In this document: positions 22,250 to 25,291 of the stretch, piece after piece
Layout: every line of letters begins with the position of its first letter
Position numbering within the stretch: position 1 is the stretch's first letter
Source of the DNA: a bacterium
GTDB taxonomy: Bacteria > UBA8248
Length of the DNA stretch: 64,000 bases
Direction of reading: 5' to 3'
Assembly: GCA_965199855.1 (NCBI GenBank)
Contig: OZ241326.1
Span: forward strand, 1,440,001 to 1,504,000
Notes under the pieces: generated by a model
Database searches by the model: none
Told to the model about the DNA's origin: nothing
Seen by the model: the letters and a program-made list of their open reading frames with translations, nothing else
Translations under genes and position numbers: made by a program

Positions 22250-22891
22250 CTAGCCCCGGTATTTCGCAAAAGTCTCGCCGATGCTCGCGCCTTTTTCGAG
22301 TTCCGAGGTGATTTTCTCTTCGATTTCGGCCAGTTCATCCATTTTTTCGATGACTTCCCCGAGTCGTTCCCTGGGAATTACGACCACGCCGTTGACGTCT
22401 CCCAGAATGAAGTCGCCCTGCCGCACCGCGGCGCCTCCGCAGTTGATGGGCTCTCCCACGCTGCCGGGAACCGTGTATCCGCCGCTGCCGTGAACCGATA
22501 CGCCCCTGGCGAACACGGGGAAGCCCATGCGCCGGTGCTCCTCGATGTCTCTGGCTCTCCCGTCCAGCGCGACGCCGCCCAGCTTCATCGCCCGCGCCCG
22601 CGCGCTCATCATGCCGCCCCAGTTGGCCGTCGTCGCGCCGGAGGGGACGCTGATGACGACGACGCTCCCCTCGGCGGCCGCGTCGATGTGGTGCGTCCCG
22701 CGCCTGGGCAGGGGGCCGCCGCCGGCGGGAATCATCTGAACCGTATGGGCCTCTCCAGCCATCCGGCAATCGTCATCCGGCGACAGCAGGGCGATGTCGG
22801 GCATGTGCCCCCGGATGTTCAGCTTGTCGAAAGCGTCCGCCGCCTGGCAGGTGGAATAGCGCTTCAGGCGCTTCGTCAAATCGTTGCTCAC
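22250..22891 (-). CDS. RraA / HMG aldolase family protein
   Basis: ANWGGMM, DGRARD and GDVNGVVVIP motifs. Confidence 0.88.
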   Translation of the reverse strand: MSNDLTKRLKRYSTCQAADAFDKLNIRGHMPDIALLSPDDDCRMAGEAHTVQMIPAGGGPLPRRGTHHIDAAAEGSVVVISVPSGATTANWGGMMSARARAMKLGGVALDGRARDIEEHRRMGFPVFARGVSVHGSGGYTVPGSVGEPINCGGAAVRQGDFILGDVNGVVVIPRERLGEVIEKMDELAEIEEKITSELEKGASIGETFAKYRG

Positions 22892-22969
22892 GGGTTTCTC
22901 CTGAATCCTCGCGCGAAGAGCCCCCGGCGGGAGGCGCGCATGAGGCGATTGCGGGAAGGCCGCGGGCGC

Positions 22970-23726
22970 CTATGCGCGAAATTCCAAAAAGCGCGCGCCC
23001 TCCGGGTCGAGTTCCTCCAGAGCCTTCAAGCTCGTCCGCGCTCGGCGGAGGGGTTTGCGCCACGACGCCCGGGCGATGCAGGTCGAAGCCTGTTTTCTCG
23101 ATCACCTCGTCCATCGAATGGCCGGCGTGAACGCTGGCGACTTCAAGCCCCGTCGGTTTTTTCTCGAACACGGCGATGGGCGTCACCACGTGGCTCAGGC
23201 TCCCGGATTGCGTCGAAAAATCGACTTTGGGCACGAGAAATCGCCTGTCGTGCGTCGTTCGCGCGATGATGGTTCGCTTTACTCGCGGCATGATGACGGC
23301 GCCTCCCCCTCCGCCGGGAAGCCTCACCTTCGGCCGGAGCGGGTCGCCGATGTAGCTCATGTTGGCCCGTCCCTGCTTGTCGAGCTGGGCCGCGCCCAGA
23401 AAGGCCGCGTCCGCCTCGCCGCGCGCGAAAAGATCGTAGATGTCCGGGTTCGAGAACAGCGCGGCGGCGCCATGGCAGAGCTCGGAGTCCACCGTGCTGG
23501 CCGGCATGAAGCGGGGCTTCGGGTCCACGGAGCCCGCGACTTCCATGAGCGCGCAGTTGGGCGCGTGAAGCTTCTTCGCCAGGAAAATCGCGACCATGGG
23601 GAGCGCGCAGTTGGCCCCGTGGAACACCTTTTCGCCGTCTTCGATGAGGCGAGCCAGCGTGACGGCCATCTGGTTGCCGGCGCGAACCACGCGCTCGGGC
23701 GGCGATGCGCGGCGGGCGCCCATCAT
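22970..23726 (-). CDS. CoA-transferase family I (GctB-like) beta subunit, with apparent +1 frameshift near 23025
   Basis: FLGAAQLDKQGRAN, RLPGGGG, HDRRFLV.KVDF and VIEKTGF motifs. The family-like tail ALEELDPEG...RA* is in another frame and ends at 22970. Confidence 0.8.
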
Positions 23727-24550
23727 CCCCGGGCCGCGCCCCGCGCGGGCGCTTTCCCGGCGCTCGCGAGATATTCCCGAAGCCCGCTCTCGCTCCGCGT
23801 CAAAGCCATGTAGCGGCGCATCTCCTCTTTGTCCACCCCGTAGTATGGGTGGCAGCTGCAGGGAGACGCGCCGCCCGGCGCTTCGACGACCGCCTTGACG
23901 AGAAAGCCGGGGATGCTCGTTCTCTCGGGTTCCGACGCGATTTCCCCGGGCGCGGCGATTCGCTCCGCCGTGAGAATCACCCCTTTTCGCGCCGCGCGCG
24001 TCATCTCGACGTCATAATGCCTGTTTCCCAGAATCCGGGCGTTGCCCTGCGCGTCCGACATCTGGACGTGGATCAGCGCCCAGTCCGGCTTCAGGGCGGG
24101 GATCGCGTGGAGCTCCTCGTTCGTGTAGGGGTCCCGGATCGTGAAGATGCCGCTTTGCTCCGGAATGTCGCTCCCCTCGAAGCCGCGGATGGGCTGGAAG
24201 GGAACGCCGTAGGCTGCGGCCCGCAGCCCGGCGAGAACGCTGGCTCAGGCGTGCTCGGTGAGGCCGGTCATCCCTTTCTCTATCGCCTTGCGATAGTTGG
24301 GCGCCAGCCCGAATTCCGCCTCGAAGGTGACGATGCCGCTGACGACCCTCCCGAGCGCGCCCGCGGCGCAAAGAAGGTCGGCGTCGTAGCCCGGCGAGGG
24401 CTTGATGAGCGTCAGGCGCCGAAGCCCCGCGCGCGCGATTTCCCGCGCGAGCGCGGCGGGCGTTCTGTGCAGAAGGGTGCCGCCGACGCTGATGGCGTCT
24501 CCGTCCTCGATGAGGGAGACGGCCTGCCGCAGGGAGGTTTGCTTGTTCAC
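23723..24550 (-). CDS. CoA-transferase family I (GctA-like) alpha subunit, probable selenoprotein (TGA at 24245-24247)
   Basis: Continuous 276-codon frame with one internal TGA: ...LTEHA-U-ASVLAGLRAAAYGVPFQP...DPYT...PALKPDWALIHVQ..D..GNA...PCSCHPYY. A SECIS-like hairpin follows the TGA. Confidence 0.85.
24205..24233 (-). promoter_or_regulatory. Bacterial SECIS-like stem-loop
   Basis: After an 11-nt spacer from the UGA: CGCCG-GGCUGC(GGGCC)GCAGCC-UA-CGGCG, with G residues at +23 to +25 in the apical loop. Confidence 0.75.
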
Positions 24551-24778
24551 GGTCGCTCCTCGTCCGGTCGTTCGAGGCTCATGCGGCGCGTTGAAAAATC
24601 CACGATGCCGCAGTCTAGCACAAGAAGGCGCTTCGCGCCTCCCGTCTTTCACGTTCGCCGCCGGGCGGCTTCGCGGGGTTCATTGACCGCGAACGTCGGG
24701 ATGGCGTAAATATCGCTGAAGCGAAGAGTTTTTATGGGCGGCATGTCCATCCGCGTGAATCCATCGAAAGGGCGTGAA

Positions 24779-25291
24779 ATGGCGCGAATTTCCCAGGTTG
24801 AGCCGGAACGGGCCGAAGCGGCCGCGAAGCGCATCATGGAGAATCTGCAAAAGCAGTTCGGCGTGGTCATTCCCCCGGTGAAGGCGCTGGCCCACAAGCC
24901 GGATTTTTTGCGCTCCCTGCTGAGCCTGACCACGGTGGCGGACGGCCCGGGGGAAATCTCCGTCGGCTTCAAGGAAGTCCTGAACATTCGCGCGTCGGTG
25001 CTCAACGGGTGTCATTTCTGCGTGAACATGCACTCGAACATGGCGAGAATGCGCGAGGTGGACGACGAGAGGACGAAAGCGGCGCGGGAGGGCTCCGCCA
25101 GCGATCTCTTCGATGAGAAGGAAAAGGCGGCACTTCGCCTTTGCGAGGAAAGCACGCGGGGGGTGCGCGTTTCGGACGAGACGTTCGAGGCGCTGAAGGC
25201 GCACTATTCGGAAGCGCAGATTGTGGAGCTTCTCGGCGCCGTCGCGCTCATCAACGCCTGGAATCGCCTCATCGTGGGAATGGGCTTTTAG
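24779..25291 (+). CDS. Carboxymuconolactone decarboxylase/AhpD family protein
   Basis: NGCHFCVNMH (CxxCxxxH), and IVEL...INAWNR at the C-terminus. Confidence 0.88.
   Translation: MARISQVEPERAEAAAKRIMENLQKQFGVVIPPVKALAHKPDFLRSLLSLTTVADGPGEISVGFKEVLNIRASVLNGCHFCVNMHSNMARMREVDDERTKAAREGSASDLFDEKEKAALRLCEESTRGVRVSDETFEALKAHYSEAQIVELLGAVALINAWNRLIVGMGF

Follow-up and report, generated by a model that had tools for sequence, protein, structure and literature searches.

Known bacterial selenoproteins with an in-frame selenocysteine insertion sequence (SECIS), FdhA and the SelD of the genome described here among them, share a UGA codon, a downstream hairpin with a small G-rich loop at a spacing of 16-37 nt, an alignment column otherwise occupied by cysteine (Cys), and the machinery for selenocysteine (Sec). 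In the consensus quoted in a 2026 review, the bacterial SECIS has a loop of 3-9 nt, a stem of 4-16 bp, G in the first two loop positions, a spacing of 16-37 nt and a folding energy of -7.5 kcal/mol or lower (PMC13188914). Table 1 of the same review, by its own description the most comprehensive inventory, comprises 119 prokaryotic selenoprotein families, and that table has neither a coenzyme A (CoA)-transferase nor a PF01144 entry (PMC13188914). Here we describe an alpha subunit gene of the family-I CoA-transferase fold that is interrupted by an in-frame TGA. It lies in a 64,000-nt stretch of DNA, hereafter the window, from a bacterium of the UBA8248 lineage (assembly GCA_965199855.1, contig OZ241326.1, positions 1,440,001 to 1,504,000 of the forward strand). 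With a probability of about 0.85, we read it as one gene in which the UGA is decoded as Sec by way of SelA, SelB, SelC, SelD and a conserved hairpin core, giving an alpha subunit in which Sec replaces the Cys of its subfamily.

Among proteins of solved structure, the alpha product is closest to IpdA (6con, 6coj, 6co6/6co9), AibA (5mzw etc.) and GctA (1poi), with E-values from 6e-32 to 1e-27, and SCOT-type chains reach only about 1e-3. The best structural relative by sequence is IpdAB, the COCHEA-CoA ring-opening hydrolase of actinobacterial steroid catabolism (6con, 6co6, 6co9, 6coj), which is likewise an alpha/beta pair with the family-I CoA-transferase fold. The relationship is distant, however; IpdAB has Glu where the window's subfamily has Cys or Sec, and its steroid-pathway context is not found at the window, where the neighbours are CMD, RraA-like and UxaA-like genes. 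In the part of the literature drawn on here the beta subunit of IpdAB is described as being without the catalytic Glu (PMC5380842), and the enzyme as a retro-Claisen hydrolase for which the published assays covered there saw no CoA-transferase activity. GctAB (1poi) and the canonical ScoA/PcaI/AtoD subunits resemble the window's pair in having PF01144 in both subunits and a GG-containing N-terminal motif in alpha. They differ in having Ser (GctA) or the Gln of a PQG motif (canonical subunits) at the Sec column, and their beta subunits keep the catalytic Glu. AibA/AibB of Myxococcus (5mzw to 5n03), presumably a 3-methylglutaconyl-CoA decarboxylase, also has the same fold (alpha E 9e-32, beta E 8e-29). 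Like the window's beta subunit, AibB has a residue other than Glu at the canonical position, and the deposited variants carry C, A or V exactly there; AibA differs in having Gly at the column instead of Cys or Sec.

One reading frame with a conserved in-frame TGA

The alpha gene is broken in the open reading frame (ORF) listing into two minus-strand pieces, 24245..24652 and 23723..24061. An earlier note, made from the letters of the window alone, had proposed that they belong to one frame with a single TGA, and that family motifs continue on both sides of it. Translation and a Pfam search bear this out. The plus-strand tca at the site is TGA on the coding strand (context LTEHA*ASVLAGLRAA, the asterisk marking the TGA), and a single frame runs through it from a GTG, with GAGGAG just 5' of it on direct reading, to a terminal TGA that overlaps the ATG of the beta gene (ATGA) (Table 1). 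The match of the read-through product to the Pfam model CoA_trans (PF01144; E-value 2.1e-20) extends over residues 40-258, and so includes sequence before and after the TGA, and since the next gene downstream is also CoA_trans the two form an alpha/beta pair. In an NCBIfam scan, the pcaI/scoA and atoD models matched weakly, far below their cut-offs, and no selenoprotein model matched.

Table 1. Features of the locus and of the second group of TGA-containing genes (positions are those of the window)
Feature	Position or loci	Strand	Remarks
Alpha subunit gene, family-I CoA-transferase-fold heterodimer	23723..24550	-	275 codons including one probable Sec codon; GTG start 24550, stop TGA 23723-23725
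In-frame TGA, probably read as selenocysteine	24245..24247	-	Residue 102 from the GTG start; 136 in P0001 numbering
Conserved hairpin core	24211..24229	-	7-bp G+C stem, flanking G-U pair, GGC loop 24219-24221, loop start 23 nt after the UGA
Full minimum-energy hairpin of the window genome	24205..24233	-	Core plus 5-bp lower stem and UA bulge
Beta subunit gene	22773..23726	-	PF01144 E 1.5e-17; AibB E 8e-29, GctB 2e-19; start overlaps alpha stop
RraA-like aldolase or decarboxylase family gene	22250..22891	-	PF03737 E 3.6e-32; directly downstream
CMD/AhpD-like protein, Cys-x-x-Cys motif	24734..25291	+	PF02627 E 2.9e-16; divergent
Second TGA clade, EEHA*M alpha subunits	L066, L068-L072, L074-L112, L114		Own 5-bp hairpin with CGUG loop, Asn-type beta, different gene context

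Forty relatives were compared: of the 22 other members of the genus, 20 have an orthologue with the TGA (69-81% identity), and a single genome from a second genus has one too. The TGA column was identical in all 20 of the relatives' loci returned. Public genomes were then scanned, one genome per species, with patterns derived from the query, and the best 80 of 112 loci were kept. The column holds TGA in 75 of these and Cys in two, with no motif match in the remaining three; given the query-derived patterns and the selection of the best loci, 75 of 80 is not an unbiased frequency. The 75 loci are of two types. Twenty-nine have TEHA*, as in the window, and their record titles include Nitrospinota, Nitrospinaceae and Tectomicrobia, while 46 have EEHA*M and are mostly Burkholderiales or Betaproteobacteria records (the second clade in what follows). 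Of 201 genomes sampled evenly across the order Burkholderiales, to which genome G041 belongs, five had TGA orthologues and three had stop-free homologues.

The earlier note had named a sequencing error in the TGA as a danger to its proposal, and either such an error in the assembly or a pseudogene can be regarded as exceedingly improbable. A one-base difference in the adjoining beta gene relative to three other assemblies (see below) speaks for it, but the TGA occurs in the 75 loci from separate genomes and in the contigs of four public runs, and amino acids are conserved on both sides of it. Those contigs, from four studies, span the whole stretch, with TGA and hairpin core unchanged in all four. 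Three of the four run assemblies, which are sponge metagenomes, differ at 7 to 17 other places and never at the TGA. The first run may be the window's own source; the other three are X3, X7 and X8. As a separate observation, the X8 assembly is one letter short at position 23813 of the window, within the alpha gene, which would shift the frame near residue 246; the other three runs are unaffected.

Where the window's gene has TGA, all 120 of the listed full-length homologues, which are 42-54% identical to the query, have Cys in the alignment. The earlier note would have taken Trp or a varying residue at this site as evidence against Sec; Cys is found throughout, and the column is one of only 19 that are invariant in the alignment of those 120. 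The alpha product is a member of a large subfamily in which the Cys of an E-H-A-C motif is invariant. A Cys paralogue is also present in each genome of the genus, with TGC or TGT in the column in 20 of 20 fetched. Many protein fragments of 157-159 aa (P0151, P0158, P0164 and others; about 50% identity), one of them labelled Rokuibacteriota, start a few residues past the Sec column; they could represent the C-terminal remnants of additional Sec clades, or contig-end artefacts.

A different view of the two ORFs is that the TGA is a true stop, and that a 101-aa N-terminal piece and a C-terminal piece made from a downstream start together form alpha. Gene callers yield exactly such pieces: in a collection of 5.8 billion proteins the best full-length match is only 56% identical, and the orthologues are present as N-terminal pieces of 101 aa ending in TEHA and C-terminal pieces of 112 to 167 aa, named 'hypothetical protein', 'glutaconate CoA-transferase subunit A', or nothing at all. 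In the second clade, moreover, an ATG directly follows the TGA in 43 of 46 loci. However, the nearest in-frame start in the window's gene is 61 codons past the TGA, yet 23 of the 40 codons that follow the TGA encode one fixed amino acid with two to four codons in use (30 distinct orthologues), and so are under purifying selection. In the other three loci of the second clade, ATA or ATC takes the place of this ATG. The Cys homologues P0013 and P0019 share the Met at this place, and because P0019, with both Cys and Met, is sister to the second clade, the Met there is inherited. A split would also remove an invariant residue, and would leave unexplained both the frozen hairpin described below and its absence from the Cys paralogues. 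A split alpha subunit is thus highly improbable, and a single gene is preferred. The cutting of these genes in public annotation means that metabolic reconstructions of sponge-associated Nitrospinota and many Burkholderiales miss or misread the enzyme.

A constrained hairpin and the selenocysteine machinery

Folded at minimum energy, the 45 nt counted from the UGA form a hairpin of -22.9 kcal/mol. The earlier note had described a bulged hairpin that starts 11 nt after the UGA and has loop G at +23 to +25. The lower stem does begin 11 nt after the UGA; the loop G positions are +24 and +25, and the bulged lower stem is not conserved. The note's wider claim, that spacing and loop G fit the geometry of a bacterial SECIS, agrees with the published consensus, within which the window's hairpin falls on four counts (GGC loop, 7-bp stem, 23-nt spacing, -22.9 kcal/mol). 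The hairpin of the second clade also lies within these limits, with a CGUG loop, a 5-bp stem, a spacing of 21 nt and energies of -8 to -11.3 kcal/mol. In the two Sec clades different codons thus build different hairpins on the same 5' arm.

Save for one U-A pair that became U-G, the hairpin core is the same in every orthologue of the two sets compared (20 of 20 and 13 of 13), so that the hairpin, like the TGA, is kept in orthologues as far as its upper stem and loop are concerned. In 30 distinct sequences of the window's clade, the mean synonymous codon entropy of codons +6 to +11 is 0.035, against 1.12 at 40 nearby four- or six-fold codons. This is the lowest of the 70 codon windows compared, and the sole change is the one from U-A to U-G. 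In the 46 sequences of the second clade the entropy of codons +6 to +10 is 0.03 against 1.10, the lowest of 56 codon windows, and here the sole change yields a G-U pair. For the Cys paralogues of the same genomes (18 distinct sequences), the corresponding entropies range from 0.80 to 1.23, and no hairpin is common to them. Such freezing of the upper stem and loop at synonymous sites is far beyond chance. The collapse of entropy in both Sec clades, and not in the Cys paralogues, means that the hairpin is under selection as RNA.

The earlier note had also tied its proposal to the presence of sel genes, and these were found. The window's genome has selA (548 bits), selB (372 bits), selD (344 bits) and a tRNA-Sec (79.4 bits, threshold 47), all above the curated cut-offs, with selA and selB adjacent. 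Its selD (G000:C1:2985603-2986568) itself has one in-frame TGA, as in known Sec-containing SelD. In the second clade selA was present in five of five genomes. From these components the following can be proposed: SelB carrying the Sec-tRNA would bind the conserved hairpin, and very likely this would insert Sec at the UGA.

The UGA might also be read through without selenium, either by a near-cognate tRNA (Trp, Cys or Arg) or because the hairpin merely slows termination, and it is general knowledge that hairpins 3' of stop codons can promote read-through. Against this, the genome holds the full Sec machinery, and an invariant Cys column in the listed homologues is a hallmark of Sec sites. Both hairpins have loops that begin with G followed by G or U, at the spacing of a bacterial SECIS, and TGA is an ordinary stop in this organism, being the terminator of the alpha gene itself. 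Read-through of this kind is therefore very unlikely, and decoding as Sec is preferred.

Several observations nevertheless count against the Sec reading. The fold energy is unremarkable in G+C-rich DNA, with a z-score of -1.48 for 45 nt (18 of 200 shuffles equalled it) and -2.21 for 91 nt, and the hairpin of the second clade has a z-score of +0.31. Compensatory base-pair changes were seen in none of the 12 pairs across 13 orthologues; the stem is simply invariant, which is neutral by itself. Most orthologues do not have the lower stem, which with its bulge is particular to the window's genome: of the 13, 10 lack pair 18-46 and 8 lack pair 21-43. A search of the hairpin against Rfam, with E up to 10, returned no match. 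The presence of selA does not discriminate either, because it was also found in five of five genomes with Cys forms only.

Position of the residue in the fold and its possible chemistry

When the alpha product is aligned by MAFFT with two canonical ScoA/PcaI subunits encoded in its own genome, Sec falls in the column of the Q of IPQG/SPQG, and no gap separates it from the invariant Arg. The earlier note, counting back from the conserved Arg, had put forward this same match to the Gln of the family-I PQG motif. The closest solved relatives, though, are IpdAB, AibAB and GctAB, not the SCOT and YdiF that the note had named. In Rhodococcus IpdA the Sec column is chain position 117, in an ungapped stretch, with E in 6co6/6co9 and A in 6coj; we take this position to be the catalytic Glu105 of the ring-opening hydrolase. 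In a solved CtfAB, Gln98 of CtfA lies 2.5 Å from bound acetate, beside the catalytic Glu (PMC12400318). Judged from its residue number, CtfA Gln98 would be the Gln of PQG.

The beta subunit differs from that of a canonical transferase. In alignments with AibB and with an F-E-G-G paralogue, the window's beta has Val at the position of the canonical catalytic Glu. The paralogue is the third alpha/beta pair of the genome (G000:C1:2866737-2867573, L117), which has His in the Sec column and a GctB-like beta that keeps the Glu in F-E-G-G, where the window's beta has E-V-A-G. Judging by this third pair, losing the Glu in beta seems to be linked with gaining the Cys in alpha. The residue before the canonical Glu position is Asn in the second Sec clade, in a Bacillus Cys form and in the Cys paralogue. 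Of the features of a true family-I transferase, the PF01144 fold is present, the beta catalytic Glu (S-E-N-G or E-x-G) provisionally appears to be missing, and the column of the alpha PQG Gln holds Cys or probable Sec. Because its beta subunit is without the canonical catalytic Glu and its closest relatives are IpdAB, AibAB and GctAB, the enzyme is probably not a strict CoA-transferase; it looks IpdAB/AibAB-like rather than like a true transferase.

This view of the active site has its own difficulties. A MAFFT alignment with canonical SENG-type subunits placed the Glu two residues away, and the beta of the window's clade has a Glu one residue before the canonical position, so a transferase mechanism is still conceivable; the alignments with AibB and the F-E-G-G paralogue are preferred because in them the following Gly aligns. 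The beta gene is frame-shifted near its end in this assembly, so that the last 20 or so codons are altered and the ORF runs into the RraA-like gene. At position 23028 the window has an extra base relative to all three non-source assemblies (X3, X7, X8), and without it beta would have 251 aa and a C-terminus like that of its orthologues; the extra base may be genuine variation between strains or else a mistake of assembly. Lastly, the roles given to IpdA Glu105 and SCOT Gln99 are presumptive.

To our knowledge, nearly all known selenoproteins are redox enzymes or metal binders through selenium. Here selenium would stand at the substrate-carbonyl position of a fold that handles acyl-CoA, in a subfamily whose invariant Cys is without an assigned function. 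The sequences show a single gene, a conserved TGA, a Cys column, a constrained hairpin, the Sec machinery and the place of the residue in the alignment; the insertion of selenium, the catalytic role and the substrate are inferred. The alpha/beta enzyme would bind acyl-CoA as its solved relatives do, and the Cys or Sec, at the carbonyl-facing position, would do the chemistry done by Glu in IpdA. CoA would not be shuttled through a glutamyl thioester, and the substrate would probably be the acyl-CoA of a di- or tricarboxylic acid.

Within this scheme we tentatively prefer a version in which the Cys or Sec attacks a di- or tricarboxylyl-CoA as a nucleophile, at either its thioester or its beta-keto carbonyl. 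In a Glu-less CoA-transferase fold the alpha residue might then form a seleno- or thioester acyl-enzyme, or a beta-keto tetrahedral adduct, and cleave or transfer acyl-CoA, having been recruited twice independently (in Nitrospinota/Tectomicrobia and in Burkholderiales). If so, a fold with no known link to selenium would employ the element in acyl chemistry. That the residue acts instead as a general acid/base is possible but doubtful.

A redox or regulatory role for a real Sec, such as a selenosulfide with CoA or with an AhpD-like neighbour, or a peroxide-sensitive switch, also has to be considered. Redox proteins make up most known selenoproteins in the review cited above (PMC13188914), and 24 of the 29 loci of the window's clade have, upstream, a gene for a CMD/AhpD-like protein with a Cys-x-x-Cys motif. 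The AhpD/CMD-family motif is Cys-His-Phe-Cys both in the window's protein and in that of L058 (2268-2936). However, this neighbour is absent from all 46 loci of the second Sec clade. The alpha sequence near the Sec has no second Cys and, unlike known bacterial selenoproteins, no UxxC or CxxU redox motif, and the Sec lies in the column that is catalytic in IpdA. A role of this kind is thus unlikely, and one in acyl-CoA chemistry is preferred.

Lineages and gene context

A quick maximum likelihood tree (IQ-TREE, unrooted) was made from 62 of 115 rows with the Sec position masked, keeping every third Nitrospinota and every fourth Burkholderiales Sec row. In this tree each Sec clade holds together as one group (support 99 and 86) that lies within Cys forms, and the branch between the two has support 100. 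Taken with the difference in hairpins and in gene contexts, the tree suggests that one residue changed between Cys and Sec on two independent occasions. A residue switched twice in this way is marked as chemically critical, and provides a handle on the mechanism of a large group annotated as 'CoA transferase subunit A'.

Full-text literature searches in which selenoprotein or selenocysteine was combined with CoA-transferase terms gave no relevant paper. In the main text of the deep-Sep and BSepDB papers (PMC12013277, PMC13326102) the words CoA and transferase are absent, though their supplementary lists, or supplementary tables of older papers, could still name the family. This is very probably a selenoprotein family that is absent from the catalogue and papers searched, is present in at least two bacterial lineages, and would add an entry to selenoprotein catalogues.

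The gene contexts of the two clades differ. In the window's clade, some of whose 29 loci are cut short, an RraA-like gene lies downstream in 24 and a UxaA-like dehydratase gene is found in 19. Neither is found in any of the 46 loci of the second clade. In three loci of that clade searched with Pfam, the neighbours include a Lyase_1 (PcaB-like) gene (L084, L093), an alpha/beta hydrolase gene (L093, L102), and either a family-III CoA-transferase gene (L093, L102) or an HpcH-type lyase gene together with an Asp/Glu-racemase family gene (L084). The Bacillus Cys form is flanked by genes for a family-III CoA-transferase, an enoyl-CoA hydratase and an acyl-CoA ligase. The presence of a separate CoA-activating enzyme alongside is in keeping with an alpha/beta protein whose substrate, not product, is an acyl-CoA.

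Sec-type and Cys-type alpha genes can also occur side by side. In two marine Nitrospinota loci, L061 (3298, 4943) and L062 (1119, 2759), one gene of each type lies about 1.6 kb from the other, possibly as a Sec/Cys isoenzyme pair.

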